From assembly GCA_008632985.1 (NCBI GenBank), contig QPGO01000013.1:310001-374000 (forward strand): a stretch of DNA of 64,000 nucleotides, written 5' to 3'. A model generated the notes under the pieces. That model did no database searches, was not told the origin of the DNA, and worked only from the letters and a program-made list of their open reading frames with translations. The position numbers and the translations under genes were made by a program. Origin of the DNA: Psammoneis japonica. Taxonomy: Eukaryota. This document shows, piece after piece, positions 24,358 through 56,994 of the stretch (positions are counted from its first letter, which is position 1; the number at the start of each line of letters is the position of its first letter).

Positions 24358-25112
24358 TGTTTCTTATTTTTATTACAGCTCTGACACTATCTCGCTCCAC
24401 ACTGCACTGCTAATTGGGTGTTGGGGGCATGCGCCATTGTGACTGCAGCATGCAACGGCGCAAGATTGAAGTGCATCTGGCTTTCCAATTTTTGATATCT
24501 TATATTAATGAATGAATACATTTTGAATTGCCACGTCGTGATACGAATTCGGTCCGTCCATGTCACGCGCCCAGAAACTCCCGCCAAATCTTGCGCCGCA
24601 AACTTCCCGCCTCTTCCAATGATGCACATCCTCACTTAGACTTAATACTGTGCATGCGAAGTCTAATGTGTATCTGTTTCAGATATCTACTTACATTTTA
24701 GAGAATCGAAATGTTATGCAAGAGACTTGCAAAAAAAATGTGAAACATGGGATGCATATTATATATTGCCAGCTATCTCCGCCGGATCATGCGTGAAATA
24801 AAACGGCACCGTGGTTCGCTCCTATCATCATCAACCTTCGTTTCCTCTCGCCTCATGAAATATCGAAATGGTAGCTGCGGACGCATATGAACTACACACG
24901 AAAGAACGTTTTGCTCAGCGATAAAGAGTGAAAGTGGCGCATTAACATTTGCGCTCCAAAAGGCTTACATGTATATGTAGGGTGCGGTGCCGTCCACTAT
25001 GGGCATACCGCGTGGATGGCAGGATATGCGATGCAATAGAGGCAGACAACCTTTACAAAATTGGTGGCTGTGTACAAGCAAAATAGTCACAAGGAGAGCG
25101 CTTGCATCTCTC

Positions 25113-26255: not shown

Positions 26256-27796
26256 AATCCTCGTTCTTGACGATACGTGCTAGCCTAACAAGAGTAGAAG
26301 CAAAGTGACACGAGAACAACAAATACAAGTCTTTGTGTACCTTTCCTTTGTTTGCGGAGGACTAGTCGGTGTGTTGTACAAAAGAGTGAGACTGTCTCGT
26401 GCCTCGACTTGCTGCTATTGGACTACTTTGTTCTGCCCTCCGCTTCCTCAGTGCTAGTGTGGATAGAATGATTGCTGCTCTCCTTTTCCTTCGTGGCTTT
26501 TTTACACTCTTTCATGTGTTGCTTTTCAACTAGTCGAGGAGCATGATCTCGATTCGTGCTTTACTGGGTTTGCGTCTACTGTGAACAGGGATCCTCGAAC
26601 CATGCATGCAACCAAATGCTGATTCGCGGCAAATCGTTGCGAACGCGAAGTGCCGGACGAGTGTGTCAGTTGAAGCGGTGGTTTTCTCAATGCGCAATCG
26701 TAGTTTCACCGAGGTTAATGCCAAGGGCAATAGACAGCGAGTAAAGCCGTTGGATTTTTGCAATAAATCTCGTCTCCTTTCCATTTAACGGCAAGATTGA
26801 CATTATTTCCACCATGGCCAAACCTCTTCTTATTGAAGGCGTTTCTGCATTCATCGTCTCCGAGCAGGTTTGTTTAACACCACCAATGGCTCTATTTAAA
26901 GACATGTCCCTGGGAAATATCTTGCTTAAGTGATATTAAATCCATCTCTGGTGTTCGATTTTTTTACTGTACATTGAGTCGCTTGTTGTGTGCGGCAGGA
27001 CGACCGCAATCCGAGTCGCTGTTGATGATTCCGTGCTGCAACGCAACGCGCTCTCTGCAGGCGGCTCCCACAGACCTCCCATGTTGGGAGCGCCTCTAGA
27101 GCAGCTCTTCCCATGTTGGGAGCATCTCCAGCTGGCAGAAGGGGCTGGAACAGGGGTGGCCACATTGGAGAACATGAGAACCTTCAAGCAAACGAGTTGG
27201 TCTGTGAAGCCACCACTCCCGGGTGTGTTGTGGCCCCGCCAGTGCATGGCGCAACTCTTGTGTGCAAAAAAGAGAGCAACAAAATGATCACACAACAAAA
27301 GACAGAGCCCAGCAGCTGTGCAAAACAGCAAAGACCACATCTTGAATCTGCTGCTCCGCAGGTTTTTTCAGCCACTGTTGACAAGCGCTCTAATCTTTGC
27401 AGAGCTCAAGCTGCTGGTTCCCTGCTTGTCACCTGGCCCACAGCGGCTCTGAAGCAGGAGAGCCAGAGCCCTTCAACACACATGTTGGGGGTGCTCTCAA
27501 GCCTGTCCTGTTGCTTTGCCTCCACCTGCAAGAGCATCTTTGTCCAAAGCTGCTCCGTGTGGGGCACAGCTCTTCCCTGAGGGCGCGGCAACAAAAGAGA
27601 ACAAGGGTGGGGGGGGGGGCAGGCCCACAGCTGTTGCACCAGCTCCAAAAAGAAAAATGGCATGGCCACAGCAGTGTGGCAGAGGAGTTTTGCCATGTGC
27701 TTCTCTCCACAAACTCATGCCACCGACACTTTTGTTGGAAATGAAGAAGCAAAACAATGCCGCCAGCCAGCGACACACACACGCACACACACACAC

Positions 27797-27965
27797 TGAC
27801 AGACATCCGAGACGGGGAGTGCACTCCCTTGTCTCGGACAGACTGGCGTGGACAGCATGGAGAGATCCGATGATCTCTCCTTTGCTCACTTTCTTTCTCA
27901 TCTAGTGCACGATCATCATCTGTCCCAGACATCAGTCAGATCATCCCAATGCCGCTAGTCCACAA
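27797..27965 (+). repeat. 5' LTR (169 bp)
   Basis: Matches 35018-35186 without gaps, 15 substitutions; contains hairpins (ggagagatc-cgat-gatctctcc; tccgaga..gggag-N4-ctccc..tctcgga). Confidence 0.93.
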
Positions 27966-28166
27966 GGTTGTGAGCAGCAGCATGCTGTTTGTCTTCCTCA
28001 GTGCAACTGCGTTGCAATGTTCGCTGTGTGATTTGGCACCGTTTCTCCTTTGAAATCGTCATCTTTGTCACAGCTGTTTTTCTCACTCGATTTTTGTGAT
28101 CATCACCACCACCACAGACCACATGCCAGCATTCCATGCAGGATTTTGATTTTTTTTCGCACAACC

Positions 28167-30192
28167 ATGGCGCCGACCAAGCAAACTTCCATCGATTTGA
28201 CCAAGATCAAGTCAATGCAGGTCAAATTCAAACAGCAAAATTGCTTGCCTGATGCCCATTCTTGCCTGAATGACCTTTGTTCAGACGCCATGCCTGCTCC
28301 TGAAGATCTTCTGGATGGATTTGCTCCTCCAGGCCTCAAGCCCAACGCAGTTGCAATCATCCATCACAAGATCGTTCATGATCTGATCACACCTCAGGCC
28401 ACCTTGACTGAGGATCTTCAACGGATTGGACCGCTCATTGACAAAGCTCCCCTCTTCGTGGCAGCTCCTCAAGACACCCCAATCTGTCTGAACCTTGCCA
28501 ATCTTCAGAAAGCTGTGATCAAAGCCATCTCAGATGCCCAAGACACCACAACCACATGTGTTGGGACTGTCAGTCTCTTCTTTTGCCCTGGTTTTGAGAA
28601 TTGTCTGTGTTGGGATGATGTCTCTGACACTCCACACCCACCGTCAGCCTCTCCTCCAAGCTCTGCATCTCAATCGACCACTGCTTCAGGTCCGACTCCT
28701 GAAGATTTTGCCAAGGCCTCAGCTGCTCATTTGCCTGGAGACCAAAACAGTTTGAGCAAGCTGTGACCAACGCATGGAAGACTTCTGCGGCTTCTGCACC
28801 ATCTCCTTTGCTTTCTGCCAAGACCACTGCTGCTGTGGTTTCCCCTGCGACAACGACCAGTGCTTTGTACACTTTCAACCCGAAGGGACTTCCAAAAGAT
28901 GCATTGGCTTGCTGTCAACGCAAGGAATCTGGGAAAGCAGCACTTGGGAAGTCACTGGCACCTTGCAAATCAGGAAACCTCTACCATGAAGATGGCACTG
29001 AACGTCTCATCCTTGCAGATGGTTCCCTCTTTGTCCATCATGCAGATTGGGATGCCAAGTCTTTCCTCCGTGATCCTTTGACATGTGACGATGTCTCACC
29101 TCAAGGAATCCGAGTGTGGTGTGCTGCAGCAACCCAACAAGCCTCGGCTTGTGGCATCTACATGCATCCTCTCTGGTGTTTCATCAAGGACGGTGGTGAC
29201 TGGGGTTTCACGAGCGGCAGCGACCCGACTGATGACCTGCCACTTCGCATGCATGCACCCCTTGACCGCATGAAGCTTGCACTTCTTCAGTGTGTTCAGA
29301 AGGTTGGAATTTTCCCAGCCGATTCCAAGCATCCTGACATTGTTCGTCAATGCCATGGAGACGGATGTGCTGCCCTCAAGATGACCCTGTTCGACATTCT
29401 TCCGATCTGGACCAAGCGCCCACATGAACTGATCAAGAGCTGCCCGCACCAAAACAATCTCACAATTCTCAGTTGCTGCGCTCTGTCTGGGATTTCCTCC
29501 AACTGCAGGCCATCATTTCCAATGTTGATGCCTCTCTTGATGATCCTGGTGAGCTGGACATCTTTCTCAGCAATGCTCGACATGGAGAGCACCTGCATCG
29601 AAAGACAGTTGCCGCCAGGGAAGACAAGAGTCAGGAACACAAATTCACTCAGAAGAAGATTGTCGAGATGATTGCTGCGATTCTCAAGGAACCAGACAGT
29701 CCTGCTCTTTGTGTCAAGGATCCTTCCAAATGCCCTGCATGACGCCTCCACAACCAGAATCTGGCCAATCCTCCTTTGGCAGCTCCTCTCCAAGCCCTTG
29801 ACTTGACACCTGAGGACGAAGCACCAGATCCACCTCTGATTGCTCTGGAACCTCCAATGGAAACTGCTCCTGCTTCCATTGAAGAACCTGTGGAAACTGT
29901 GGAGTGCTTTGTGGGCGAACTTGCTGCTGTGGAAATTCCACCGGATGATGACACACAAGCACTGCACGGCATTCACAAGGCTTGCATCTGCAGGATCAAG
30001 TCTTCCCCTGCCATTGCCCACTCTCAACCATGTGTTGCATGTGGTGATGACCACTTGTTCCACGAGTGTCCGGTCTTGAACAATGCTGAGCACCTGCGCA
30101 CCCATCTCATCCGCTTCTGCCAGCTCCTTCAATGTGACCGCCGTGCCCGAGACGCACCCAAGGATGGAAAGTCAAAAACGGATTTTTCCTGG
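28167..30192 (+). pseudogene. gag: Copia gag, degenerate and frameshifted
   Basis: Chain of ORFs 28050/28763/29473/29776; zinc knuckle CVACGDDHLFHEC near 30030; ends at DFS(W)G. Confidence 0.7.
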
Positions 30193-33100
30193 GGCCATTG
30201 TTGCATTCGGATGAACAATGCTGCCCGTCACTTCTCAATCCGAAACTGCATGCCAGCGGGGCAACTGCGAAAGAGGGTCCCAAAGACTCGTTGCCTTCCG
30301 CTGAACTGCCTCTTTCACGTGTCTCATTTGCTGACCTCTTGTCACCCTCAACGAAGACTGGAACCCCGGTGCAATGTGCAGCTGCCAATGAGAGTCAACG
30401 CATCACGGCGACGTGTTGCAGCCTTTAAATGTCACAAGGGCGTGACAAAAACAACCTTTTGTCTGCATGCATGCTGCGTTGTGAATTCACAACGGAGTGG
30501 TTCATCGCAACCATCAGGCAGGAGGCCAGGGGTTCGAAACCCTGAGTGGGAGTTGTCTGCAGCAACGTTGATCACTGTCGAACGCGTTAGACTCTGTGCA
30601 GTTCTGTGTGTTCCTTCGCACGTGCCCACACTGTTCCGCCAAAACCGTGCAGTGTCAGCACACGTTAGTAAAGAGCCGCATGGACGCGTGATGCATGGGG
30701 AGGAGTGCAACACACAGCTGCCAACAAGAGCCAATGCACCACGGCGACGTGTTGCAGCCTTTAAATGTCACAAAGGGCGTGACAAAAACAACCTTTTGTC
30801 TGCATGCATGCTGCACCGGATCTCAACACTGTTCCGGATGATGACCCAGACACTGCCAATCAGGGGAGGGCAACGCCTTCTCATGAAACATCCACCAGCG
30901 AGAACGATTTCTCTCTCTCCACTGATCATGATCAAGATTTTGAGTGCATCGATGTGGACGCCAACCAACATCTCTCACCTTTGAGTGCAGTGCACATCTC
31001 TCCGATTTTTTCTCCACCTGCAGCACCCACGACGTTTGACTCCTTGACTGCCCCCGTCATCCCGATCAACCATGCAATGCGTGATTCAACGATCTGTCGT
31101 GCGCAAATTGACACTGGCGCTTGGGTGTCTTGTGCCGGAGACAAACAACTCCTTCATGCTTGCACTCCATTTGGTCTGGATGACCCCTGTCCTTTGAAGA
31201 TGCTCCCTGCTGCTGAAGGCTCTGATGCAATCCCTCATGGTTTTGGTTGTCTGCAAGCACCTGCTGCGAATGCTGATGGTTTCCTTCTTGTTTGCACTTT
31301 CTGCCATCCCAGCCTCCGTTCCACCTTGATTGATGAACGCGACTTTGCACAGGCTTCTGGACTTACACTGAAAGCCATTTGTTCCGAGTCCCTCGAGAAG
31401 ACCTGCGCTGATGGAACGTGTGCCCATGCTGCTTCGACTGATGCTCAAGTGGTGATTGTCCATGGCATCCTCCGACATGGAAAAGTTTTTGCCCAGCCCC
31501 TGGTCCCACCGTCTCCGACCAATGATCCCTCCATGCCTGCGACTTCTGACTTGCTTCCGGTTGATGACATTGACGATGCCTGCCAACGTGCGATTTTTTA
31601 TGTCAACGTTCAGCAAATGCCGTCTGACCCTTGGTTGATGGATGCTGAGTTGTTTCCAACACAATGCAACTCCATTGTGCACTGTTCATCGCCTCCGCCA
31701 AGTTCTGCCCCGGTCCGCTCTCTCAAAGTTGAGACTGAACGTCTCCTTTGGCGCCAACGCCTTGGACATCCCAGCAATCACCATTTGCATCATGCTCACA
31801 AGCACATCAAGGGAGTTCCTGAGTTCCGTCATGCCAATCCAGCTCTTGACATTTGTCCCACGTGCATCCAGGCAAAACAAGTCAAGACTCCTGCTGGACC
31901 AAACTCCACTCGCACGGCAACTCAACCATGTCAAGGTCTCACTGTGGATTTTGCCTTTGCTGGACAAGCCTCCAAGAATGCATGTCGCACCTCTGATTGC
32001 CTTGGCCACAATGGCGAAACATGTTGGATCACCGTTTGCAACCATAAAACACGCGTGCTTCATGGTGTTGCACGAGTCTCGAAGGCTGGTCCTCTCAAGT
32101 GGCTTTGCCGATTCTTGGATCGACACTCGCCAAATTGTCATGACAAATGTGTGTTTGTGGACCAGGGAGGGGAATTGCACAAGAACCCCAAAGTTTGTGA
32201 CCTCTTCAAACGAGAATTCCAGCATGACATTTGCCCATCAGGCGCTGGTGCTTCCAATCAATGTGGCCCTGTGGAACGCTCACATTTAACTGTTGAGAAC
32301 GCGATTCGTGCAATCTCAATTGGCGCCAATCTCCCGATCAGATTCTGGCCCTGTGCTTTTTACCATTGCCTCCGCATCAAGAATGCTGCTCCTGCGAAAG
32401 ATCAAGATGCATCTCCTGTCACCCTTGCTGCTGGAAAGGTCGAAGACTTTGCCACCTTGAAGACTTTTGGATGTCGAGCATGGGCCAAACGCTCCACAAA
32501 ACGCTCCGCCACTTTTCGCTCCAACTCCAAGAAGGGTGCATTCCTTGGACATCTCCCAAACACCCTGAAGAATGTTCTTTGGTGGGATCCGGAGACTGAC
32601 AACGTCAAGACAGCTAAACACGTCCGTTGTGACGAGGGCATGAATGACCTCTCCACAGATCAACTCCCTCTGAATGCCATCCAGTTGCAATGCATGGAAA
32701 ATGGTCAGCCTTTTCCGGCTGAAACACAGGACACGACCGTCCCAATGTTTGCTTCTTCATCAAATCCTTTTGCCAAGACCATCACTTGCACCATGAAGCG
32801 TCCTCCAATGGATCCCAGCTGTGGTTTTGGGTTCTCCATGTGTGCTCTCATGGAACGCACACATGTCTCGGACATCAAGCAACGCAGTCCTGCGGCCTCC
32901 CTGTTCTCTTCTCTCCGTGCCACTCGGAACAAGCTCATGGGTGCCCATGTTGTCTCTGTCAACAAGCACGAAGTCTTTACACCGCAAGATGCTGAAAAAG
33001 CACTCCTGCAGGTCTGCCAAGATGACATCCCTACTTTTGAACTTGCGTTTGCGCCTGAACGACGTCTAGATTCTCGCACCCTTAACAAAGCCTTTGAGGA

Positions 33101-34904
33101 AGCGGAGCCATTTGATCCTGACTCAATGGAAGATGACTCCCATGCACCGGAGCTCACTTTGGAGGATGCACGATCCATTGCAGCAGTCCTGTGTCCTGAT
33201 GATGACTTCTCCAATGATGCTGTTCCGACCGAGGCTTTCTGTGCTCATCTCCATGCCATCAGCTCTCGTGCAATCACCCCGGAGGAAGCTGCCCTTGAAC
33301 GCCTTGCCCGTGCCAAGCTCTGTAAACTTGAAACATGGCCTGAATGGGAAGAAGGAGAGAAGCGCCAATTGGACCAATTTTGTGCACTTGGCATGTGTGG
33401 CCCTCCACAACCTCGTCCCGCATTCTTCATGTGTGGAACGCTTGGTTGAAAAGATGTTTTTCGCTCTCAGTGCTGCCACATCTTATCGAATCTATGGTGG
33501 TGACGCACGCGATGCATGTGCTCATTCTCCTGGCCCTTCACAACCGGTGTTTGTCGCCATTGATGATGCCTGTGCTGCTTGGCATGAAAATTGCTTTGGC
33601 AAGAAGGCACCTCGCCACTGCATCCTTCCGCTCCGGCATGCTCTCCAAGGTCATCCTGAAGCTGGTGTTCTGTGGGAAAAGCACATCAGTTCGATTCTCA
33701 CTGGTGCAAAACTTCTTTTTCGCAACACTGCTCATGACAAGTGCATCTGCTCTGGTGAACATGACGGTGTCAAGGTCCTGTTGCTCCGTCAAGTTGATGA
33801 TTTTGCACTTGCTTGTCCTTCCGAGAAGGTTGCGAAGGAAATCTATGATCACATTGGGAAAGCTCTTCAGATGGAGAACGAGGACACTCCCCCCTTCAAA
33901 CATCTCAGCCTCGTTGCTGAATTCAATGGCATTGATGTTGTTCAGGGTCAGAATGATGATTCGATCATGATCAATGTTGCCAGCTGCCTCGACCGTGTCT
34001 TCAAGACCCATGGATGGGACACTCCCGCTGCGAATGAAACCGACACCGATTTCAAGGCTGCCCCTGTGCCAGTCGACTGCATTCCCGAGTTGTGCACTGC
34101 TGAAGGCCCCGAGGAGGGTGCTCCTGAATGTGATGCTCTCTCTGCCTCTCATGGTTTTTCCTGTTGCTCTCTCTTGGGTGAATTGGTCTTTGCACACTGT
34201 GCTGTCGCTTGGACATTGGACACCCTGTTGTCACCTTGTCCAAGTTCTCCAAGGCTCCCGCTGATGTTCACTGTGATTCCCTCAAGCGCATGACTGAGCA
34301 CCTGCGATGTGCCAAACACTGGGGCTTGACACACAAGAAGACTGAGCGTGATCCGGGCCTGCCTCCCCGTGCTTTTGAGTGGCTCGAAGATGATCCTTCT
34401 CTTCCTGAGTTCCCCCGCGTTGATGATCTGTTCCAACTGCTTGGCTTTGTTGATGCGGCACATGCCAATGAACTGTGGTGTCGCCGCTCTGCCACTGGGT
34501 GTGCGCATGTCCTTGCTGGTGCTGTGATTGATTGTCGTTGCCATGCACAGACCATTGCAGCTGCCAGTTCCGCCGAGGCTGAATTCCTCGCGGCTGTCAC
34601 TGCTGCCAAGCAGACGTTGTGCCTTCGCATGGTCCTTGAAGAGCTGGGCTTTGCCCAACGTGACCCCACTTGCTTGCATGTTGACAACTCCTCCGCCATC
34701 CGGATGATCAACAACAAGGTGCCTGCGGAGTGATCGCGCCACATTGACATTCAACATTTTGCGATCCAAGACTGGCGCGATGCAGAAAAAATTGTCACAA
34801 GACATGTTCCGGGTGTTGTTGACCCTGCCGACGTCCTCACCAAGGCTGTGGGTTGGATGCTTCATTCCCACCATGCCCGTCGTCTCATGGGACACTGCTG
34901 TTGA
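30180..34904 (+). pseudogene. pol: Copia pol (protease, integrase, RT, RNase H), mutated
   Basis: PR IDTGA (about 31110); LLW(R)QRLGHP...CPTC; integrase VDF / DQGGEL / GPVERSH; RT ALQGHPEAG and LRQVDDF; RNase H GFVDAAHAN, EAEFLAAV, RHIDIQHFAIQDW, HARRLMGH(C); internal TGA at 34731. Confidence 0.92.
30370..30815 (+). mobile_element. Nested TRIM-like non-autonomous LTR element (446 bp)
   Basis: About 110-bp terminal direct repeats (30370-30478, 30706-30815), outer ends TG...CA, PPT ggggaggag before the 3' repeat, CCGG duplication on both sides; removing it restores the pol frame. Confidence 0.8.
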
Positions 34905-35017
34905 TTGTTGTTCTGTTTTGTGTGTCTTTTTGGTTTGCTGTTCTGGTCCTCATTTTTTTCTCTCGGATTGTCTCCTTTCTTTCTTGATGAGCTTTTGCAT
35001 TGCTCATCAGGGGAGGG

Positions 35018-35186
35018 TGACAGACATCCGAGATGGGGAGCACACTCCCTTGTCTCGGACAGACTAGCATGGACAGCATGGAGAGATCCGATGATCTCTC
35101 CTTTGCTCACTTTCTTTCTCATCTAGCACACGATTGTCATCTGTCCTAGACATCAGTTAGATCATCCCGATGCCGCTAGTCCGTGA
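35018..35186 (+). repeat. 3' LTR (169 bp)
   Basis: Preceded by the PPT, followed by the TSD CACAC, and matches the 5' LTR. Confidence 0.93.
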
Positions 35187-38100: not shown

Positions 38101-41100
38101 TGGAGCTCACATGCTAGCATTGGCGGGAGGCTTGTGCTGCTAGATGCCACAGAGCTCTCTCACCAACCCCCCCTCTGTGCACACATGTGAGAGGTTGCCC
38201 CCCTTGGCATCAGCAAGGGGGTTCCCTTGATGCAACACATCAAAAGCAGAATTTTTGTGGTTGTGTGAGACCAGCTCTCCCCCATGGTGAGAAGAAACTC
38301 TCTTGTGCAACTGCTGACACCACACCCCTCTGTGACCCAGCTCTCTCCTCCAGTCAAGCATGTGCAGCTGCTCATTTTCAAATGTGGTGTTTGCGTCAAT
38401 TCATTTTCTTCAGCAAATGATCAACTCTCAACCATCTCCAATTTGTGCTGCATTTTTCCATGGCCAGCAGAAAATTGCTGGCTGCTGGCCATGTCATTGC
38501 ACACAAGAATGGAGCCATCCAGCACACCCTCATCTCAAATGTTGTCTGGTGTCATCCAGACAGGCCAACCATGATCATTTGCTCCCATTGTGGCTTTGTT
38601 CTTCTTGTTGGAATCCCTGCTGCTGTGTGCTTCTTCAATTGTTTTCATTCATGCTGTTGCTTGGGTTTCTTGCATCAATGAGCTTGCTCTTGTTTTGTTC
38701 CTCTTGCCTTCTTTTCACTTGGGTGAGTGTCATCATCACCACAGAGGCTGCAGGCAGATGGCAGCATGCTTGTTTTGGTGCATGCTTCCTCACCTGCACC
38801 CAGCCTGCAACACATGCATTGACTTCTGGTGTGATGCCAGCTCAAATGAATGAGTTGCAATGTGAAAGAGCTGGTGAGTCAAATGCAAATGAAGGAAGTG
38901 AAGTTAAGTGCAGGTTAGAAAAGTCATCTTTGACACACACCTGAATGTCAGAAATTTCCACTGTCACAAAATGACTGCTGAGCACAGACACAATCAACAA
39001 ACATCAAATGGAACAGCTTGCCACACAGCCCAAGTCTGCTTTTCCACATTGTGTTGTTCTCATTTGCACGAACCCGTTTGCCTGAGAACTGAGAAGCACC
39101 ATCCACAAATTTGCATCAACAAATGTTTTGACACACCAGCAATGGAGACCAGATTGTTTGATGACAAAAATGTGACCGCTGGATTTGTGTGTGTGTCATT
39201 TTTCATTGCCTCTGTTGTCAAGCACAACCTCAACTCCTTTTTGACTGCCAGCCAATGAACTTTGATTGCTTGTTGCTCATGAGCAATCAAAGTTGATTTT
39301 AAAAAGGGCACAAATGCACCTTGTGTGAGAGGTTGCACTGGCTCTTGAATTTTTGGCATGATGGAGCACAACGTCAAGGTGGTCACCCCCCACCAGAGCC
39401 AACACCTCATGTTCCTTTGTCATTTTTTGCCTCAAAGACGATGTGCTCCATGTTTTCAAAATCATTGTCATCAAGTTCTTCCCTGATGAGGACTGTGGTG
39501 GTTGCTCTCTTGCTGAACTTTGTTTTGGTCCTGCGTTGTTGCTTGCATCAGAGCTTGTCAGCACAAAAAAGTGGTTTCTTGTGGCTTTGGGAGTGTTTGC
39601 CTTGTCAGGCATCAGGGCCGCATCATTGCAAGGGCTCGTGCAGGGAGCCACAAAGTGCGTTGATCCATGAGATGTTTTTGTTGCAGTGTGGCTGCCAGGC
39701 ATGTGCTCTTCTGTCAGTGGGCGCAAATGCATGCTTGTCATTGTCTTGGTGTCTGCCAAGCATTGTCTGGTCTGCAAAAGACCTCAATTGAAGCAAGCAG
39801 CATCACACCTCTCCTTTCTCTCCCCCCCCCCCCCCCATTGAAAAATCTGGTTGCTGCAATGAAGGATTTGGTGCATCATGGTTCAAGGAAAGGAAGCAAG
39901 AGAAGGCCAACTTGTCACAGGAGGCAGAGAAGAAGCACAGCAGAGAGGAGAAGAGGAAGGAGAGAGAGGGCAGATGGCCACTCTGATGGGAGAGAGGTCC
40001 TGCCCTTGTAGCCAGTGGCAGCTGGCAATGGTGCGGAAGCAATTGCAGCCATGGCAACAAACCAAACTGGTGTGCAAATGCAACAATGCAAGGAGATGAA
40101 ATGCAGAAAGAAGTTGCACAGGTGCAGAGGATGGGTTGCAGGTGGCAAGAGATGTGATGAAAAAGGCATGAGGAAAAGCAAATGACAAGAAGGGTTGAGA
40201 ACAAAACCACGGGCAAGAATGTTCGTGCTTCAAAGTGGGGTGAAAGCTGGAGCCCACCGAAACTTGTAAACTCAATTGGTTCTTTGCCAATGTTCAAAGA
40301 AAGACTTGGCTCACAAGTTCACAATTGTCTGGGATTGGAGTCAAGAAATGCCCAGATTGTGACAGGTGGTCAGACCCAGATCATTGGTGTCCCAGATGCA
40401 CAACAAGGCACACTTTCAAATGGCAACAGACCCACAGTCAAACTGACCCACCAACCAACCGGCCAACACGAACAAAAAGTCACAATCACCAACCACTGAG
40501 TGTCAATGAAAACTCCAACTGCACTGCCAAACAAAGCAGAGTTCTTCCAACCCTGAAGCCCGTGCCAGGCCCAATGCAGACAATGGCTGCCACATGTGCC
40601 TGCTGCTTTGCCTCTGTCTCCAAACTCATTTGGTTTTGCCCATTTGGAGATTCCCCAAAATGGCAAGGGCAAGGGGAATTGCCTCACCCTTTTGGGAAAT
40701 GCCCAGGAAATGAGAGCAATTTAGCGGGAAGGAACAACTGAAAGGGTTCAGGGGAAGGAACCAAAAATGAGTGCAGTGCGGCAACCCCACTTGATTTGGC
40801 TTGGGCAGGTGTGCTTTTTCCTTGTTTTCATCCAGCCGTGGCTGGGCGACGACCATGATGGATGCATCAACAAATTGACACAAAGTGGCCCCTTGTGGCA
40901 GAGCAAGGGAGAACAAACTTTGCCATTAAATCATGCACATTGACATTGCTCACATGCAGCTCCATTTGTGCCCCAGCCCAGAGCCCAGCTCCCACAAATT
41001 GTCATTGTTTGTGTGCTGTGGAATTTGACAGAGGGAGGGAAGGGCAAATTTTTAGGCAGTGAGCAAAACATTTGTGAGGGCAGGCATTTGCAGTGCAGTG

Positions 41101-44100
41101 CTGCACATGGCTGAATTCTTCACACTCCACAAAGACATGTGACTCCATTTGCAGGCACTGGCATGAGTTTTTGCATTCAAATCATTGAAATGGTGAATGA
41201 CCGTTTCACAGTTCTGGTGGACCCCACGAAAACCCACAGCACAAGCACTGTACAATCCTCAATTGAGGAAAATCCCGGTGGACCAGACATTTTAAAGTGC
41301 TTCTTCATGTGTGATGTGAGAACACTCCACGGCAGTCTCTGCTCTTTCTTTTTGTGCAATTTTCAAGACCGTCATTGTTTTTAATTTAAGCTTTTTCCGT
41401 TCAGATTTCAAAAAATCCGGATTGATTGTTCTGGCCATTTTTTCAGGCAACGCAAATCGCCCGCATCCCGCATTTGCTTTCGGTTGCCTCAAGCCTCAAG
41501 TGAAACAAGACGTGGTTGCGACCATGTGCAAAGCCGATGAAGAGCCGAAATCAACCAGTGCGGTTTTCAAACCACCTCTTTCACCAGAGATGTCACAACG
41601 AGAACTAAAGATCATCAAGTTGAATGACCGAGTTGACAAGATTGCTCAAGGGGCCACAAAAGAGGCCAAGAAAAACGGAACAGAGCTCAAAACGCAGTTT
41701 GCACACACCCAGAGAAAGAAAACCTTTGTCAATGCAGGATTGCCGATCTGCATGCGACATCATGCCTGGTTGGTGTGCACATGCACCTTCCTGGCTGCTG
41801 GAATGATTGCCTGCGGTGTGACCCGAGCAAACCCCCAGAACAATCAACCCAATTCAGTTAATTGCAGTTGGTTGCAATTGCAAATCAATTGCAGCATGTT
41901 CACCTGTTCCTCAACGCATTGGTTTGATTTGTGTTGTGCTTGATTTCTGCACATTGCATGCAAAAAATTGCATCGCTTCTCAGCACAAAAACGATGCAGG
42001 TTTCTACACGGTCATGAAGCAATGGCGGCATCTTGCTCTGCTTCTCCCAACACAATGCGATCTGCACCCATTTGTTTGTTGTTGTTGCCGTTGAGTGCAG
42101 CACGTCATGTTGCATGAAGGAAAACAAGGATCTCTGGGATGTCAGTGATGTGGTTGAAGCCATCAAAAAGAGGCTGGAGAAAAGCAAGGAGAGCTGAGCA
42201 TCCAAGAAGATTGAAGAGGAGGCCCTCATCATTGCAGCCATGGTGGCTATGGTGGCATGTGATGATGACGAATCTCAGCAGCAATTGCTTCATCACAATT
42301 GTGCAATTGATTGCAATTTAATTGCAGCCTCTCCAGCCCCAGCTGCAATGAATGGAACCTCCAGTGTTGTTGGCGGGAAATTAAAAAATGAAATTTTCTG
42401 GGGGTTTGGACCCAAGTCCACCCTCTGATTGGCAATCTTGTCCATTGTTTTCATGTGTTTTGAGTGCAACATGCACTCAGGAATCCTTCACGTCATGTTT
42501 GATCTCCCCAAAACATCGATGCACCAGTTCCAGGACAAGTCTGCTGCCTTAATTCCAATGGCATCATTTCATCGCCAATGATCTGGTGCACAAGGACTTT
42601 GTCGACACCTGTGGTGACCTCAATGTTGTTGCAGCCATCTTTTAGCATCAACCTGATGCTCCCAGACTTCAGCAAAAGCAGTGTTGCCAAGATTGTGTTT
42701 GGCACAAAGATCCTGATGGGACACTTTGGTCAACACACTCATTGCAGTGGTCATGCCATTGGTGCAAGTCTGTCATCCCTGGCAAGATTTTTGCAAAAGT
42801 GCGGCCTGATGATGTCAACCAAGGATTGCTGGATGCACCATCAAGAGCCCCATGACTCCAATTTCTGCAACATCAGTTGCTGCAACCCAGTCATTCATTT
42901 TCTAAGAAAGACCATGCTCAATGATTTGGCATGGATTGTGCTCTTTCTTGTGTGGAGCATCTTCATGATCAAAGTGCCAGTCATGTTCATGGAAATGGTC
43001 TCTTGACATTTTCTTTCTAAAAGCAACAGGCATCTTTTCCCATTGTCTGCCCACCCTAAAGCATTGTTCTGTTCTGTCCATGTGCAAGATGAAACAGAAT
43101 TGTTGCACAGTTGACATTAAAAACACACAGTCGTCATAAATCCATGTGATGACTGAGGTGTCACAGTGCAAGTGCCGGCATGACAACAACTGTGAACATG
43201 CCTCACGGGTGTGGCAGCCACAATCTGCAGCAGACAATGAACTCTGTGCAGAAGTTACAATGTGTGGCATGTTCATGCAAAAGGACCAGTGGGCATTTGC
43301 GATGGCCAGCAGTTTGATTCTCTAAAAGCCAAAACACTGAGTGTCATTCTTGAGCAGGCAACCTGTGTCATTTTGATTGCATGGACTGTCTTGCACTGGC
43401 CAGTGGATCTCTTTTTGTGGAAAAATCCAATGCCAGATCAGAAAGCTTTGCTTCATGAGCCAAGTTTTTTGTTGTGTGATGGTGATTCACTGTGCAGCTT
43501 TTGCCAGTGGCATGTGTCAATGTCTGGCTGGTGACATGCAACCAACTGTGGCTGCTGGTGCATTCCTCTCTTTGGCATTCTTTCCTTTGCAGCCAGCACA
43601 CCCACATGTGACTGTGTGTGCTTGGGTGGACAAGGAAGAGCTGCCATCCACAGGGTGTGCTGCAAGACTTGGGCATGTGGCCAATGTGCAAATGCCACAA
43701 GAAAAACTCTGAAAATCCAGTGGCATTGCCATCACAAACCCAGACAAAATTTTGCCCCTGCCAGCTCTCTCAGAGATGCTGGGCTTTTGTTGGTCATGCT
43801 TTTGTTGCAATCATCATCAAGTGCAAACTCTCACACATGGCACTCACAAAGCCCCTCCTCAGCAAGCTGCACATTGTGCCCCTTGTTCAGCTTCAGAAGA
43901 AAACAATGGCACCTGGCAGGGCCCTTGTTGTCTTTCTTCAAGGAATGCAACACCCTGCTGGGAAACCATGCAGAGCTGAGAAGTTTGATCTTGCCAGGTT
44001 CTCAAGGTGGTGAATGTGGGAGCTCATGACATGCTCTCCCAGCTCTCTTGAACACCCCTCTCATGAGATTGTCTCTTTTTGGATCAAAGGGACAGGGGAC

Positions 44101-47100
44101 CCAGGTTTTTCTTTAATGCACACATGGCAGAAAGCAGTTTTTTGGCATGTTGCATGAGATGATGCCACATGATTGGCAAGAACAGCTTCTGTTGTGCACA
44201 AAATCATGCCAAAATCTTCTGCTGGTTGCAAGGAGAGGCAGAATTTCAAAGCAACGTTTTCCAAAATTGGTCTCAGCTGGTGCATTGTGTCTTGTGACTC
44301 TCGATGATGGTGCTCATTTTGCTGTGGTGATGACATTGACAACTGCTGCAGCTTCATTGAGCAAAGAAGTTGTCTTTGCCAAGAACAAAAAAACCTGCAC
44401 AATTTCTGTGGTTTTCCCCAACCAAAGCAGCAGCAGGATGCAAACAAGAAACAATCAAAGCCACACTGCTTGGGGGCAAATGATCATGATGCAGACCTGC
44501 AAGCAAAAGAGGCAGGCAAGTGCTCCTGGCCAGCCAGCAGCGGGCAATGATCAGACCAAAAAAAGCAGCAGCAGCATCAAAAGAAATTGGATTTGGCTAA
44601 AAAACTGTCACAAGGTGCCAAGCTTCTAACTCCCACTGCACCCTTTGCTGAACAACACACACCAAACAAGTGCATGGTTTCTCACCAAAGAGCTGCTTTC
44701 ATGAACTCAAGATCATGATGGACAGTTGCCTTTTGATGCCATCATGTCCACCATCATTGACCTGAGAGTGGGGTGCACCTGTGCACAAGTTTTAATGGCA
44801 GTCTCATCAAATGGTTTTGAAGTGTCTGCACAGCTCCACATCTTTTGTTTGAGCAACACATGCCATCATCCAAATGGCACCTTTGTGAGAATGAATTTTG
44901 TCATTTGCTGAAAATGTGAGCTGCAAAGACTTTGTCTGTCAGCAAACAACTTGCAAACATGATGAAAGCTCCAAGGAAAGGATTTTTGGGCTCTGAGTCT
45001 GCTGGGTGCCAATGCACAGATTTGGAGAACATGCAACCAAATCGACTTCACACCCACTGCTTCTTGCATGGGAACTGGCACAAAGCTTTTCCAGCGAGCT
45101 GCTTGAATGAGAAAGCTGGGATAAAAACAAACCTGCATTTTCCAGTTTGTCTGCTCAAGCAGGTTCAAATCAGTGCAAATTGTGAAACTCATGACAGGCA
45201 AAAACCAGAGCCTGAGTGTGCTTCTTGCTGCCACTTGTTGCTGTTCAACTTGGGTGAACTGTGGCAACTTGATGTGTGGCGATTGACAAAGAAGCTCGCA
45301 CATTTCTCAGAGCTGGCAAAAAAGATGCAGCATCAGAGGAGCAGGAAGTGCCAGGTGTCACCTGTCAAAAGGCTGAAGATTTTAAATCTTCTCTTGCCAA
45401 ACACACTTTACAATCATGATCAAGGTCAAGGTCTGTGCAAGTTTGCACCAGCACAGACAGCCACACCTGTGCCTGTTCTTCCACCAGAAACTCTGACTCC
45501 GGCTCCAGGAAATTGCTGTCTCAGAGGAAAGGTGGAGAAGAGACACTTGCTTTCAGCAGGTTCTCTGAGATGGTCTGTCTTCAGTCTCTTAAAAAAACAC
45601 TTGCTGCCTGGACAAGCTTGCTTGCCTTAAACTGACAACTCATCCGCTGGGTGATTCAAAGAACAAAGCCAAAAACAAGAGTGGTGGCATGGATGTGGCT
45701 GATTGCAGAGCTCAAGAAGCTCAACAAAATTGCTCTCAATGCTCCAGTTGCATTGATGCTGCTGCTTTGCAAGGCTTCTCTGGAAGAGTGGTGTCAGAAG
45801 TGAGCAAGAACAATGTCAAGACACCATGGAAGAGCATCTTGGGTGCTGTGCAAGTGGCTTTTTCCATCCAGAAGAAGAACATTGTCTGTGCAAGTGGGTT
45901 GGAGACTGCTGCAACACTCTGAAGGTGCAAAACTCCCTGCCCAAAACTGTGAAAAGTGTCCAGACAACTGCCAGCTGTGGCCCACAGATGTCACAGCACA
46001 CACACCACACATGCCACATCATCTGTTGTTGCAACAACATCATGTGCCAGCACCCAGCTCTGATGACACACTTTGTGAGAACACTTTTTCTTTGTTGTCT
46101 CCTGTGAGAGATGGAGTTTTGCTGGTGCCATGACTCTTCATTTCTGTTGACTGCATCATGCTTGTCTGTCATTGATCAGCATCCTTTCAACAAACACTTC
46201 AAGAAGTTCACACCACTCCAGACAAACACAGGCTCTGCTGTTGGTGGCACATGGTCACAGATGACTCAGCACATGTTTTTTTTTTAACAAGCACACACGC
46301 TTCATCAAGTTTCACATTTAAAAATGAGGTGTTGGGGTTGGCACCAACTCCCTGTGTTTTCATCTTTTGATGGCAGGCAAGTGTGCATGTGTGATTTGTT
46401 CCTCCCTTGTTGATCAACTTCTTTGTTCTGTGTTTTTAATTTGTCCATTCCTTTCTCAGGCCACACCACTTCCAAAGATGGCAAAGCAGGTGTTGAGCTC
46501 AGTGCAAACACAACAAAAGAGAGCAACTGTGGGAAAATGTTGCCAAACACCCAACAAGAGAGGGGCTGCTGGCAATGCAATTGACACACATGACAGCCAA
46601 ACAAGAGGTCTCACTTGCTTTCAAGAAAACTGCAGAACTTTCAAAGGAGGCCAAGACACAAGTGTGTGCAAGACCACCAATGCCTGACAACTGACTGTGC
46701 CCAAGTGTTTGTGGAGCCAGCATGTGCATTTGGGCAACACACTTTGTTGTGCTACCTCATTGTGCAGCATGCCAGCAATGCTGACTGCCTTTAGAACACA
46801 GAGCAAGGCAGTCATTCACAGCTTCATCATTGTCAGCCCCATTTGCTTCAGTTGATTTGTGATGTCCACAACCACAGCCATGGTGACTGCAGGAGATCAC
46901 AAGACACAATGGATGCAATTCTCAAAGAACCACAGCAGCTGAGGACAGAATGTGAATCCAGTCAACTCATGAGCAACAGGCATGTTGATCAGCAGCAAAT
47001 GGGTGTTTTTCTGAGTGGAGTGATTGCATCTCTTGACATTCACACCAATGGCAGCATCTCTTGCTTGCTGGATGCATGGGAGCACTGCATGGAAAAGTGC

Positions 47101-49291
47101 ATGTCAGCATGCACATTTGTCACATGTCTGGGGTGGTCTTGCCAGTGCTCAAGATGCCAACTGTCACAGTGGTGGTGCATTTTGAGGAAGTGTTGCTGGT
47201 TTGCTTCAAAGCTGCTTGCACACATCAAGCCATTCTGGGCATTTTGAAATGCCCCAGATGTTGCACACTCAAGATCCATCAGGATTTGCATTTTGGGTTC
47301 ATGGCTCCATTCTGGATGAGCACAAAGAAGGAGCACCACCACAAAGAGATACACATTTCCCAAGAGACACTTGGTTGCCTCAACACCAAAGTGTGCCACA
47401 GTGAGGGAGAGAAGTGGAGAGGACCCATGCTCCAGTGGGCAGCAGTGCTGCACGCAGGGCACTCTTGGAATTGTTGAATTTTCTTTTTCTGCTCTGCATG
47501 TCTTGCTTGCTCACAGATCCCTTGTGATGGCTGCTGCTGCTTCAACCAGTGCTGGCAGTCACATCAATTTTGAAGACATTTGTGCACTTGCATGTGCAGA
47601 TGGTGTGGCTCCTCTTGAGGACCACATTTAGTTTGACCTGCTTGCTGATGGCAAAGGCTCCATCATCTGCTGGTTCCAAAAATGGGGCTTCCATCTGCAC
47701 ACATGTGCAAGACAACTTTTGGCATCTCAGCCTCAAGAGAGCACGGGAGTGTGCAAGAAGCTGCTTCCTCAGATGACTTCAAGAATAATTTCGGTTGTTT
47801 GTCATGCCAAGGTTTTTTTCACTGCATGCACCCCAGCAACTAGAAAATCACCGAGCAGCTTCATGGACAGCTGCAGCTCAATTTAGAGAGAAATGTGTTG
47901 CTCCTTTGGCAGCAGTGTGAAAAAGCTAACAAAAACAAGGAGGAGGGCAAGTCAGATGGAAGAAGCAACCAGAGGTTGTGCCCAGCAATGAGTGCTCCTG
48001 AAGCACAAGGAGCCAAAGAGTGGCAACAGCATTCATGTGGAGAACAGCTGCAGTCAAGCCCAAAAAAGCATGGGCTGCACACAACTGCAGCTGTCCCAGA
48101 GATGAAGTGAGAGGAAGGACATGGCTGCACAGATTTCACATGAGAAAGGTGTGAGACATGCCAAGGCTCAAGACCTCGACACCAAAGAAAATCAAAAAGC
48201 TGCTGACAAGGTGATGCACCAGCCCATTGATTCACTCACAAGCCTGTGAATTTAGAAAGATGGCAAGCAAAAGCCAATGTGAACAATGTGGACAATGACA
48301 AGACATGGGGTCATGGATCCCAATGAAAAACAAAGATCAGAAGATCCCAGCTGGCTTGCATCTGACAAGTTCTGGGAAGGATCGAAAGCAAAGAACAGCT
48401 TTCACGACATTCTGGAAGCAGTTTTCCCCTGCTTGCTTCTGGCTCAATGGGATGAAAACCAAAACCAAAATTGAGTCTGGTGAAAATGACACCTTGCAGC
48501 ATTTAAAGATTGCTGGCTGGGTTGCAGAGAAAAATGTCAACGACAATCTTTTGGAGTGCAAAACATGGAAGACTTGAATGAAAAACAAATCCTCTCCACT
48601 TGTTGGAAAGTTGATGCCCAGACACACCTTGAAGAGAAGCATGGGGCAAATGAAAAGCAGAGTGAGTTACACAGCAAACTGCTGCAATCACTTGGCATGC
48701 CCGTGCAGAGTCACCCATGGCTTTTGTTGGGGAGAAAAGCAAGGAAAGAGCAACAGCAGAGATGTCATGGAGAGAGCGATGATGAGGGCTCATGAAGTTG
48801 AAGAACGCAAATGAGGAGAATTAGACTGTTGCTCTGGGCAGCTTGCCAGAAAGGAGAAAGACTGCAGAGTTGAGCATGTCAGAAAATGGGGCCTCAGTTT
48901 TGCCACCAAATGGGAGTGTTGTTTGCTGGCAGCACCTGGGTGTGATCTTTGCATGGTGAAGTGCGGCAACAGAGAGAAAAACAAAAAGCGGTTTCATTTT
49001 CTTGGCACACCCAAATGGCCAGATGTGGTGTGCATGCGAGCTGCTGTAGAATGGATTTGTTTGCTAGCCAGTCCTCTCAAAAATTGACACTGCAAAATTT
49101 TACAAGAGAACGCATTGTTTGAGGGCGTTGCAGTTGCGCGGTGGCGCGCTTTTTTTGCGCGCGTTCTCCCACCCACACGGAACAACGCACGCACTTGCAA
49201 GAAAACTGAAATTTCGAACTAACTTCGCACTTCACTCATTTTTGTTGTTGACCTGCGGTTGACGGTGGTATTGTGTTGATTGCTTCTGACC

Positions 49292-56785: not shown

Positions 56786-56994
56786 GTTTTATCTTCAATT
56801 TGTTTATTATTTTTATGTAAAGGGTTATGCTGATTGGGTCATTATGACTCAATGGCACCTTATACATGTCTTCGTAGCGTTGGATATGGAATGTCTTTTC
56901 GAAATTTTTTTTTGCGGTCATTGTTTTCGTCATTATAGCGATCGATCTGATTGAGCGAGAAAGGAGAAAATGTAACAGGAAAAGAAGGAGCAAC

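Follow-up and report, generated by a model that had tools for sequence, protein, structure and literature searches.

Why should some 22 kb of a diatom chromosome be nearly void of the dinucleotide TpA when the DNA on either side of it is of ordinary composition? The question was raised by a sequence-only reading of a 64,000 nt stretch of the Psammoneis japonica genome (GenBank assembly GCA_008632985.1, contig QPGO01000013.1, positions 310,001 to 374,000 of the forward strand), here called the window. Counting confirms that impression. Between 26980 and 49046 there are 92 TA in 22,067 nt, an observed/expected (o/e) ratio of 0.06, compared with 0.58 in the left flank (1-26970) and 0.56-0.57 in two gene-bearing spacers between the TA-free blocks; the genes of the flanks (rhomboid, mitochondrial-carrier, Myb and WD40) lie in DNA with a TA o/e of 0.56-0.58. 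The left border is sharp, around 20 TA per 500 nt giving way to 0-6 per 500 nt past 26970, and on the right TA is back at 49047-49220. TA-free DNA also reaches beyond the span first noticed, into two further blocks (D2 and D3 in Table 1). The loss is limited to the blocks, the neighbouring genome being normal.

The blocks are also rich in TG and CA, a surplus that the sequence-only reading had ascribed to loss of TA. This is right for around half of it. CpG is depleted too (o/e from 0.06 to 0.58), most strongly in D3 and D1b and least in the retrotransposon described below. Relative to the left flank, D1 has 34.8 fewer TA and 38.1 fewer CG per kb, with 38.5 more TG and 39.5 more CA, the corresponding figures for D3 being -35.0, -53.8, +37.7 and +45.8. 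The surplus thus balances the lost TA and CG together, so that about half of it stems from CG, by CpG decay as a separate process. The composition of the window shows no depletion of AA in the TA-free blocks, and their G+C ranges from 0.456 to 0.495, the left flank having 0.483. The TAs left over in D1 are mostly of the form YTAR (60 of 92; in the flanks 243 of 1224 TAs have this form).

Table 1. Positions in the window of the TA-free blocks and of the features recognised within them (ratios are observed/expected).
Feature	Position	Strand	Remarks
Block D1, TA-free island	26980..49046	.	TA o/e 0.06, CG 0.31, TG 1.81, CA 1.66
Degenerate Ty1/copia-type LTR retrotransposon	27797..35182	+	TA o/e 0.07, CG 0.58
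5' LTR, 165 nt	27797..27961	+	12 bases unlike 3' LTR
Nested small element	30369..30815	+	Terminal direct repeats of ~110 nt
gag-integrase ORF, 881 aa, 2 Tyr	30804..33449	+	Pfam gag_pre-integrs, SH3_retrovirus
Reverse transcriptase/RNase H part	33355..34901	+	Two more frames, 33355-34242 and 34197-34901
3' LTR, 165 nt	35018..35182	+	5 TAs left; less mutated of the LTR pair
D1b, older degenerate DNA of no recognisable type	35183..49046	.	TA o/e 0.06, CG 0.13
Lipid_desat (PF10520) pseudogene fragment	42503..43003	+	Pfam match
Block D2	55544..56789	.	1246 nt, zero TA; CG o/e 0.48
Block D3	59498..64000	.	TA o/e 0.05, CG 0.06; continues past window end

D1 contains a copia element in which the direction of the change can be followed. 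Its paired LTRs enclose gag, integrase and reverse transcriptase in the copia order, collinear with homologues of 1400 aa that have the RVT_2 domain, but its polyprotein is broken into three frames with one stop. The reverse transcriptase part is homologous to residues 916-1429 of the protein P0001, and RVT_2 is no longer reached there by Pfam. In a tblastn search of the window, 44 copia homologues matched no further copy beyond 29815-34901. The small element nested within it retains 5 TAs and has very high k-mer depth in read run X1.

Codons were assessed in an alignment of 26 homologues, restricted to the 805 columns in which 60% or more of the sequences agree. Among the 36 conserved Tyr columns the window element has Cys (TGY) in 18 and His (CAY) in 11, with Tyr kept in just three, so that the Cys and His first suspected at former Tyr sites are found at 29; around 92% of its Tyr TAs are gone. 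Where a codon with an initial A is expected (for I, M, T, N or K), G takes the place of that A in 28 of 34 codons preceded by T but in only 7 of the other 116 (P = 3e-18). Replacement of Thr and Val by Ala where TA spans or sits in the codon, also proposed from the sequence, is seen as well: Ala occupies 17 of 50 Thr columns, 16 of these being preceded by T, and 4 of 31 Val columns. The relation of Tyr outcome to the preceding base in the window is marginal (P = 0.052). As judged from these codons, the change runs from TA towards TG or CA, which is equivalent to A to G on either strand. The gag-integrase ORF does have the extreme Tyr poverty first noted (2 of 881 aa, 0.2%), compared with 2.4-4.7% in 43 of 44 homologues and 1.2% in the other. 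The Tyr poverty that the sequence-only reading would have looked for in intact relatives is not shared by these homologues.

The LTRs date the change relative to insertion. All 12 differences between them fall among the 74 positions in YR dinucleotides and none among the remaining 91 (P = 4e-5), and every one is a transition. They include three TG/CA doubles and three sites at which one LTR has TA and the other TG or CA. Since the pair differ at YR sites, change after insertion is indicated.

Related copia elements at 80 metagenome loci, 41 of them stacked on one family reference, carry the same signature in graded form. Across the 41 copies, loss of TA ranges from 4 to 84%; the 165 TA sites of copy L052, for instance, have become 79 TG and 50 CA, with 27 kept. 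Divergence at non-TA sites is 2.5-15.5% overall and 3.5-8.2% in seven hypermutated copies. A TA loss of 68% goes with a background divergence of 3.5% in some copies, and one of 4% with 3.3% in their sister copies. CG loss (14-52% per copy) is unrelated to TA loss. The groups compared here, seven hypermutated and 14 little-mutated copies, were picked by TA loss, so that the contrast in TA itself is circular and the informative results are those for other classes of change, context and independence. In the seven, counted per strand, TA became TG at 461 of 1665 sites (27.7%), compared with 122/2691 (4.5%) for A changes at AA, 176/3458 (5.1%) at CA and 92/3347 (2.7%) at GA, transversions totalling 1.7%. 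The excess of A to G in a TA context that the sequence-only reading would have sought in a substitution spectrum is therefore present in copies picked in this way. CG changed to TG equally in the two groups (216/1917 in the hypermutated and 291/2892 in the little-mutated copies, 10-11%, P = 0.2), so that CpG decay behaves as a process separate from TA loss.

The same copies reveal a context preference. TA to TG is seen at 173 of 464 TAC and 177 of 507 TAT but at 44 of 230 TAA and 67 of 464 TAG, a two- to three-fold preference for 5'-TAY-3' on the strand whose A changes. The strands are symmetric once this is allowed for, the TG outcome being found at 221/593 (37%) sites with a 3' pyrimidine and the CA outcome at 106/304 (35%) with a 5' purine. 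Strand-coordinated runs are significant in only one of eight copies. Pairs of hypermutated copies agree at only about half of their co-mutated sites (51 of 93, for example); TA loss arose independently, copy by copy. No LTR pairs were found within the retrieved stretches of the hypermutated loci.

Sequence reads speak to the state of the genome itself. Runs X1-X3 are from one sample, which may be the assembly's own, and the accuracy of their reads was judged from the size and depth of the contigs. Run X3 gave no contig on the window. X1 contigs, at a depth of around 60, span the left edge (25001-27759) with three differences, and match the bases of the window identically at 32750-33314 and 44336-44958, with one gap in the latter. 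Read-derived contigs thus contain the TA-free sequence, for which confirmation in reads had been suggested, so that it is not an assembly artefact. Only one X1 contig covers 35433-36945. It departs from the window at 26 of 1509 bases, significantly more often than is seen at the left edge (3 of 2759, P = 2e-9), and ten of the 26 make up five TG/CA doubles. Should this contig represent the same locus, these are recent changes in situ; it could instead be a paralogue. Around 800 nt to the left of the 5' LTR are TA-free at single-copy k-mer depth.

Beyond the retrotransposon, D1b, D2 and D3 match no element type, and we infer that they too are mobile-element islands. Pfam searches with 132 ORFs of at least 90 aa and 142 of 55-89 aa yielded only the desaturase fragment and weak or sub-threshold matches, among them a short deaminase-like one below threshold and a few others taken as chance. 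In the desaturase fragment an invariant His has become Cys, an invariant Gly Ser and a conserved Tyr His; a full HMMER search finds 54 relatives for it where a word-index search found none. Scans of the window for tRNAs and Rfam families gave no matches. The deaminase-like ORF P0045 was dropped as a candidate gene, having no usable match in the protein atlas and, by eye, no upstream H-x-E motif.

The explanation that we consider highly probable is a hypermutation of silenced mobile DNA, acting in situ at the DNA level, specific to TpA and changing A:T to G:C, superimposed on ordinary CpG decay. The blocks would be silent, degenerate mobile-element islands on a diatom nuclear chromosome, rewritten in place by two processes. 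The first would be a fast conversion of TpA to TpG or CpA, A:T to G:C on either strand, that strikes single integrated copies or domains episodically and nearly to saturation, turning Tyr codons into Cys or His, erasing TAA and TAG and ruining coding capacity. The second would be the CpG to TpG/CpA decay expected for methylated transposons, independent of the first and slower. That the first acts on chromosomal DNA after integration is likely, and it may serve as genome defence. The core of the sequence-only reading, a DNA-level conversion of TA to TG or CA destroying the coding of mobile elements, is supported by the codons, the LTR pair and the metagenome copies. Its idea that repeats are the target fares less well, the blocks holding stretches of single-copy depth and the desaturase pseudogene; chromatin state or foreign origin could equally steer targeting.

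That reading had also supposed the process to be undescribed, but there is a precedent. In the available text of a recent preprint, the new A>G/T>C mutations that integrated viral DNA gained during mutation accumulation in Bigelowiella natans are reported to lie at TpA and nowhere else (Mettrop et al., bioRxiv 10.64898/2026.01.13.699255, April 2026). On that account the two cases are alike in that changes are only from TpA to TpG or CpA and confined to foreign or selfish DNA in an otherwise normal nuclear genome, they are episodic (in some lines there, in some metagenome copia copies here), and their long-term footprint is of TpA-poor clusters rich in TpG and CpA. The preprint text further describes reverse transcriptase and DDE domains as over-represented among low-TpA coding sequences, and gives a de novo rate in the mutation-accumulation lines about 1000-fold over background. 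The cases also differ. B. natans is a chlorarachniophyte (Rhizaria) and our host a diatom (Stramenopila); a rate of about 6e-7 per site per generation was measured there, according to the same text, whereas here there is a footprint alone; the depletion it gives for an NCLDV insert is mild (rho TpA 0.45) compared with the near saturation seen here (0.05-0.07); and the target identified here is an LTR retrotransposon rather than an integrated virus. The 3'-pyrimidine preference, strand symmetry and decoupling from CpG found here go unmentioned for B. natans in the available text, in which a term search did not find 'trinucleotide', 'CpG' or 'diatom'.

Could another chemistry or another stage account for the same footprint? 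In other protists silent DNA bears 5hmU and base J as marks, and 5-formyluracil is able to mispair with G. Hypermutation in situ could proceed through thymine at TpA, by a TET/JBP-type 5hmU or 5fU or an O4-type adduct that mispairs with G to give T>C. TA>CA and TA>TG cannot be separated by strand, and T>C at R-T-A would fit the data on context and symmetry equally well. We regard this as improbable; the B. natans authors prefer adenine deamination, in the available text from a homology search only (10.64898/2026.01.13.699255).

Editing might instead take place during retrotransposition, an adenine deaminase or ADAR-like editor acting on the RNA genome or single-stranded cDNA in the manner of APOBEC3G, so that copies integrate already hypermutated. 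The copy-specific hypermutation, independent between copies of one family, would be expected of such a mechanism, and the best-characterised target is indeed an LTR retrotransposon. It is nevertheless hard to reconcile with the strand symmetry, which is unexpected where single-stranded exposure is very unequal, and with a TA-free state that runs unbroken for 22 kb across element borders, taking in the 800 nt of single-copy DNA and the desaturase pseudogene. The five TG/CA doubles at 35433-36945 imply change after integration if the contig is the same locus, and in B. natans, by the preprint's available account, integrated DNA acquires the signature anew in the course of mitotic growth (10.64898/2026.01.13.699255). 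We consider editing before integration quite improbable.

It is very improbable, too, that there is no dedicated system and that late-replicating or heterochromatic DNA is slowly eroded by a regional bias, through an error-prone polymerase or repair at TA steps. D1b and D3 are old and degenerate, with CpG decay that testifies to long residence, as such erosion would have it. Against this, the LTRs are without difference at their 91 non-YR positions while nearly all Tyr TAs have disappeared, and metagenome copies of similar divergence differ so much in TA loss that the process looks fast and episodic rather than clock-like. AA, the Pol-eta WA site, is unaffected; being neither depleted nor mutated, it makes the Pol-eta mechanism offered in the sequence-only reading a poor fit.

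Miscalling of modified bases by a long-read platform, carried into the assembly, is scarcely credible given the agreement of the X1 k-mer contigs at depth ~60, coherent changes at protein level accompanied by frameshifts and a stop, and recurrence of the signature in unrelated metagenome assemblies. Hardly more can be said for an intrinsic composition, with DNA from a source avoiding TA and CG or with TA avoidance selected in the elements: the want of a recognisable element type in D1b, D2 and D3 would allow it, but the replacements at conserved Tyr, Thr, Ile and Arg of the polyprotein are precisely those that one TA or CG transition would give, the frame is broken, Tyr is at normal levels in all but one of the homologues and LTR differences are confined to YR sites.

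In situ hypermutation at TpA invites comparison with the better known systems. Like fungal RIP, it would make dinucleotide-specific transitions in place in repeated or mobile DNA, ruining coding in copy-specific episodes, and strand-coordinated runs recall RIP in the one copy that has them. The polarity, however, is opposite: RIP creates TpA by C>T at CpA, raising TpA and A+T, whereas here TpA is destroyed, falling to 0.06, and G+C is gained (blocks and flank as given above). Relatives of the fungal RID enzyme, the DNMT4 proteins, are present in diatoms, without known function in the available part of PMC9998398. Decay of 5mC at CpG accounts for the CG>TG/CA half of the surplus, which has the form expected in repeats that are presumably methylated, and hypermutated copies have as much of it as the others; it cannot remove TpA, the loss of which is faster and uncoupled from it.

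With APOBEC3 and ADAR the likeness lies in a deamination-type hypermutation directed against selfish elements. Both ADAR and ADAT prefer to edit an A that follows U or T. APOBEC3 and ADAR, however, act on cDNA or RNA with a bias to one strand, whereas here both strands are affected equally (221/593 and 106/304) and the TA-free state extends beyond the element into non-retroelement DNA. To our knowledge ADAR is restricted to animals. TadA/ADAT2 naturally act at A34 after U33, with C as the next base in tRNA-Arg, a context that resembles the 5'-TAY-3' preference found here. Amphioxus ADAT2 is reported to deaminate both A and C in DNA, in the available portion of PMC10354150. Our leading guess for the agent, as the best remaining candidate, is a putative TadA/ADAT-like deaminase; tentatively, we propose that an adenine deaminase of the TadA/ADAT2 type acts on DNA and is recruited to silenced or foreign regions.

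Our literature search found no diatom report of TpA hypermutation, and in the available text of the diatom copia paper of Maumus (2009) a term search found no mention of hypermutation, RIP, dinucleotides or deamination. The occurrence of such hypermutation in a diatom appears to be new, as does the preference for a 3' pyrimidine. The first report, in a single preprint of 2026, concerned one chlorarachniophyte. The saturated footprint in a diatom and the graded footprints in environmental copia elements of diatom type suggest that the process is widespread among marine algae. A bolder proposal, which we consider rather unlikely, is that diatoms and chlorarachniophytes share a natural, chromatin-directed DNA adenine deaminase system, a mirror of fungal RIP. 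Silenced mobile or foreign DNA would be what this system recognises, and 5'-TAY-3' on both strands would be turned into TGY until no Tyr codons, TAA or TAG were left. Were this so, A-to-I editing of DNA would be an ancient defence of the SAR supergroup and would supply natural adenine base editors whose motif is defined. Should the agent simply be a DNA adenine deaminase, it would be a natural counterpart of the engineered adenine base editors. Any candidate enzyme would have to satisfy the 3'-pyrimidine preference, strand symmetry, independence from CpG decay and copy-specific events. The process would be a genome-defence or mutational force on transposon landscapes, one that biases the regions it hits towards G+C and conceals old elements from homology-based annotation, as with the RVT_2 domain of the copia element.

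When dinucleotides are counted in windows of 2 kb and 500 nt, TpA is seen to collapse at 26970/27097 and to return at 49047-49220. The block so delimited, D1, has a TpA observed/expected ratio of 0.06, compared with 0.58 in the left flank and 0.56 and 0.57 in the two gene-bearing spacers, while TG rises to 1.81 and CA to 1.66. A near-absence of TpA over some 22 kb between normal flanks, with TG and CA in excess, was the starting point of a sequence-only reading, and both the composition and the block stand; two further TA-free blocks, D2 and D3, and a depletion of CpG had, however, been overlooked. CpG is low in D1 as a whole (0.31), with values of 0.58 in the copia element described below and 0.13 in 35183-49046. 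Per kb and relative to the left flank, D1 has lost 34.8 TA and 38.1 CG and gained 38.5 TG and 39.5 CA; the corresponding figures for D3 are 35.0, 53.8, 37.7 and 45.8, and in both blocks losses and gains balance. The TA-poor DNA also has an excess of GpC (1.23-1.36) and a deficit of ApT (0.77-0.86), consistent with TAC>TGC and TAT>TGT. The TAs that survive in D1 are mainly of the form YTAR (60/92 vs 243/1224 in the flanks, P=2e-19), namely TTAA (25), TTAG (13), CTAA (10) and CTAG (12).

The flanks carry ordinary nuclear genes: a rhomboid, a mitochondrial carrier, a Myb, a PAP_fibrillin-like ORF and a WD40/PROPPIN protein. Among named proteins the carrier is best matched by those of diatoms (Discostella, Thalassiosira, Cyclotella, Stephanodiscus and a Corethron-labelled transcript; 56-64% identity), with other stramenopiles at 42-47%, which makes the source of the DNA a diatom rather than Bigelowiella. 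The polyprotein of the degenerate copia element in D1 aligns collinearly with homologues of 1400 aa (46-54% identity), those named being from Cylindrotheca, Nitzschia and Pseudo-nitzschia, but is broken into three frames, with one stop. Its reverse-transcriptase segment matches no Pfam family at E<=0.001, RVT_2 being present in all full-length homologues, and domain-based transposon annotation will miss hypermutated elements of this kind. A small element nested within it contains an internal GGTTCGAAACC tRNA-like box, has terminal repeats that differ from each other by TG/CA doubles, and keeps five TAs, mainly TTAA or TTAG. Since its bin has a summed k-mer depth of 63,477 in sequencing run X1, where single-copy DNA has about 60, it may represent a very high-copy TRIM/SINE-like family. 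In the rest of D1 (14 kb) and throughout D2 and D3 no coding content is recognisable apart from a lipid desaturase fragment, which has 54 relatives (best E 5.6e-25, 48% identity) and substitutions at invariant His and Gly. As this fragment lies within a TA-free block, non-retroelement coding sequence is affected too, either caught by the same process or brought there by a mobile element. Separately, an ORF in D3 gives a sub-threshold Pfam match over 27 residues around PCGLC to the LmjF365940-type CDA-like deaminase family (E 3.8e-5; 23.9 bits, cut-off 27.1). No H-x-E motif was seen upstream and a protein-atlas search gave no match; the similarity may have arisen by chance, the mutated sequence being rich in Cys, or the ORF may derive from a stramenopile deaminase gene, as a dead copy.

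Features of the window and their coordinates
Feature	Position	Strand	Remarks
D1, TA-free block	26980-49046		92 TA in 22,067 nt
Ty1/copia-type element	27797-35182	+	inside D1; 165-nt LTRs
Small nested element	30369-30815		in copia gag region; terminal direct repeats of ~110 nt
gag-integrase ORF	30804-33449		881 aa
Reverse-transcriptase segment	33355-34242		
Lipid desaturase (PF10520) fragment	42503-43003	+	degenerate; Pfam E 3.5e-10
Direct repeat	52769-53044		96% identity, offset 93 nt; within ORF region of normal composition
D2, TA-free block	55544-56789		0 TA in 1246 nt; CG observed/expected 0.48
D3, TA-free block	59498-64000		TA observed/expected 0.05, CG 0.06
ORF with deaminase-like match	61335-61667	-	in D3

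The direction of change is visible in the codons of pol. Three translated segments were aligned with 26 full-length homologues, and the 805 columns with at least 60% agreement were retained. At the 36 Tyr columns the window reads Cys in 18 (all TGY), His in 11 (all CAY), Tyr in three, Phe in two and Trp in two; Trp columns are unchanged in 14/14 cases and Gly columns in 52/60. Where the consensus is I, M, T, N or K, codons otherwise beginning with A have G as first base in 28/34 cases after T (P=3e-18), compared with 1/16 after A, 1/66 after C and 5/34 after G. Thr has become Ala in 17/50 columns, with T as the preceding base in 16 of the 17, and Arg has become Cys (CGN>TGN) in 7/60. The base before the codon is a purine in 9/11 Tyr>His and a pyrimidine in 11/18 Tyr>Cys changes, the expected direction at marginal significance (P=0.052). 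Tyr makes up 2/881 residues of the gag-integrase ORF but 2.4-4.7% in 43 of 44 homologues and 1.2% in the other. The sequence-only reading had remarked on the two Tyr residues, on Cys or His at Tyr positions and on Ala for Thr where TA spans a codon border, explaining them by A->G at TpA on either strand; the alignment bears out each point, with Cys or His at 29 of the 36 Tyr columns, and the metagenome copies below the equivalence of TG and CA outcomes.

The tempo can be judged from the copia LTRs, which were identical when the element integrated. Twelve base differences now separate them, spread over nine dinucleotides: three TG/CA doubles, three TA vs TG/CA and three CG vs TG/CA. All 12 differences fall within 74 YR-dinucleotide positions and none at the other 91 (P=4e-5). 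Given this lack of change at non-YR positions the element is young by the background clock, yet about 92% of its Tyr TAs are gone; slow decay is therefore rejected in favour of hypermutation.

Scanning of metagenome contigs with homologue alignment gave 80 loci of related copia elements, whose TA observed/expected ratios run continuously from 0.15 to 0.78; inside contigs, TA-poor stretches adjoin TA-normal ones. We piled 41 of these on the family reference L066 with a 60% majority consensus, leaving out 10 near-duplicates and 29 without an alignment of at least 72% identity over at least 800 nt. TA loss per piled copy ranges from 4% (L078) to 84% (L052, where 165 TA sites comprise 27 kept, 79 TG, 50 CA and nine other) and does not track divergence outside TA and CG sites (2.5-15.5%): L049 combines 68% loss with 3.5% divergence, L078 its 4% with 3.3%. 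CG loss is 14-52% in all piled copies. For the mutation spectrum, seven non-redundant copies with TA loss of at least 32% were compared with 14 at 13% or less; the groups were picked by TA loss, so that the TA contrast between them arises by construction and the other classes are informative. Per strand, A>G in the seven hypermutated copies affects 461/1665 sites at TA, against 122/2691 at AA, 176/3458 at CA and 92/3347 at GA. CpG C>T rates are alike (216/1917 vs 291/2892 in the low group, P=0.2), so CpG decay is a separate process affecting all copies alike; transversions stand at 1.7% and 1.2%.

The same copies define the target. Mutation is commoner at TAC (173/464) and TAT (177/507) than at TAA (44/230) and TAG (67/464), and, as the equivalent of the TAY preference, a preceding purine favours CA as the outcome. 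TG is found at 221/593 sites having a 3' pyrimidine and CA at 106/304 having a 5' purine; as targets, the strands are equivalent. Where two hypermutated copies are mutated at the same site, they agree in outcome only about half of the time (51/93, 32/50 and 30/54), and each copy was thus hit independently. A runs test for strand-coordinated outcomes was significant in one of eight copies and marginal in one more. In half-mutated L032, TG and CA lie in long alternating runs (13 vs 24 expected, P<0.0002), which looks as if single events had each affected about 1 kb of one strand, a pattern not clear in the seven others.

The window stretch is also present in one sample (runs X1-X3), X1 being represented by k-mer contigs at a depth of about 60. 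One contig spans the left edge (25001-27759) with three differences, and others match 32750-33314 and 44336-44958 without base differences, the latter with one gap. Read-derived contigs thus reproduce the TA-free sequence. As the library type is unrecorded and the assembly may have been made from this very sample, the evidence is not fully independent, but such contigs are unlikely to derive from error-prone reads. The sole X1 contig over 35433-36945 differs at 26/1509 bases, compared with 3/2759 at the left edge (P=2e-9). Five adjacent TG/CA doubles account for ten of these bases and CG/TG or CG/CA differences for four others, a pattern suggesting activity of the process even after the two versions had parted. 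If the contig represents this locus in a different haplotype or strain, then mutation in place struck the same ancestral dinucleotides independently in each; it could instead be a paralogue. Divergence between window and X1 is about 16-fold higher in this TA-free stretch than in the adjoining gene flank.

Taken together, the data describe a TpA-specific A:T>G:C transition process that prefers 5'-TAY-3', is strand-symmetric, episodic and copy-specific, stays within blocks of DNA that is mobile or degenerate and runs independently of CpG decay. It would act on chromosomal DNA after integration, given the LTR differences, the strand symmetry and the X1 differences, and because the TA-free state crosses element borders and takes in non-retroelement DNA. 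The agent would be an enzyme, the leading candidate being a TadA/ADAT2-type adenine deaminase, since the natural substrate of such enzymes is U-A, with C next in tRNA-Arg; the same candidate has been proposed for Bigelowiella natans. A chemistry acting on thymine, in which the T at TpA is modified so as to pair with G, is equally compatible. The Pol eta-like WA->WG mutagenesis entertained in the sequence-only reading fits poorly, AA being untouched. The process may find its targets by their repetition, their chromatin state or their foreignness.

Fungal RIP creates TpA, and the process in the window is its mirror image; the RID-related DNMT4 proteins of diatoms are reported to have no known function (PMC9998398). 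What the sequence-only reading observed stands and is widened, and its interpretation is correct at the core: TpA->TpG/CpA hypermutation is real, but it is not categorically new. In the literature searched we found no description of it in diatoms, for which it is new. According to a preprint (bioRxiv 10.64898/2026.01.13.699255), mutation-accumulation lines of B. natans had 231/302 new substitutions in two integrated viral regions, at a rate there of about 6e-7 per site per generation; nearly all were A>G or T>C, all on TpA, with events in some lines only. The preprint also reports 124 genomic clusters of TpA-poor, TpG+CpA-rich windows and enrichment of low-TpA CDS for reverse-transcriptase and DDE domains, its authors proposing an ADAT2 homologue as agent. 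The terms 'diatom', 'CpG' and 'trinucleotide' are absent from it by term search, and the window analysis adds constraints that it does not mention. The window carries the same TpA signature in a lineage of another supergroup, on an LTR retrotransposon island and near saturation.
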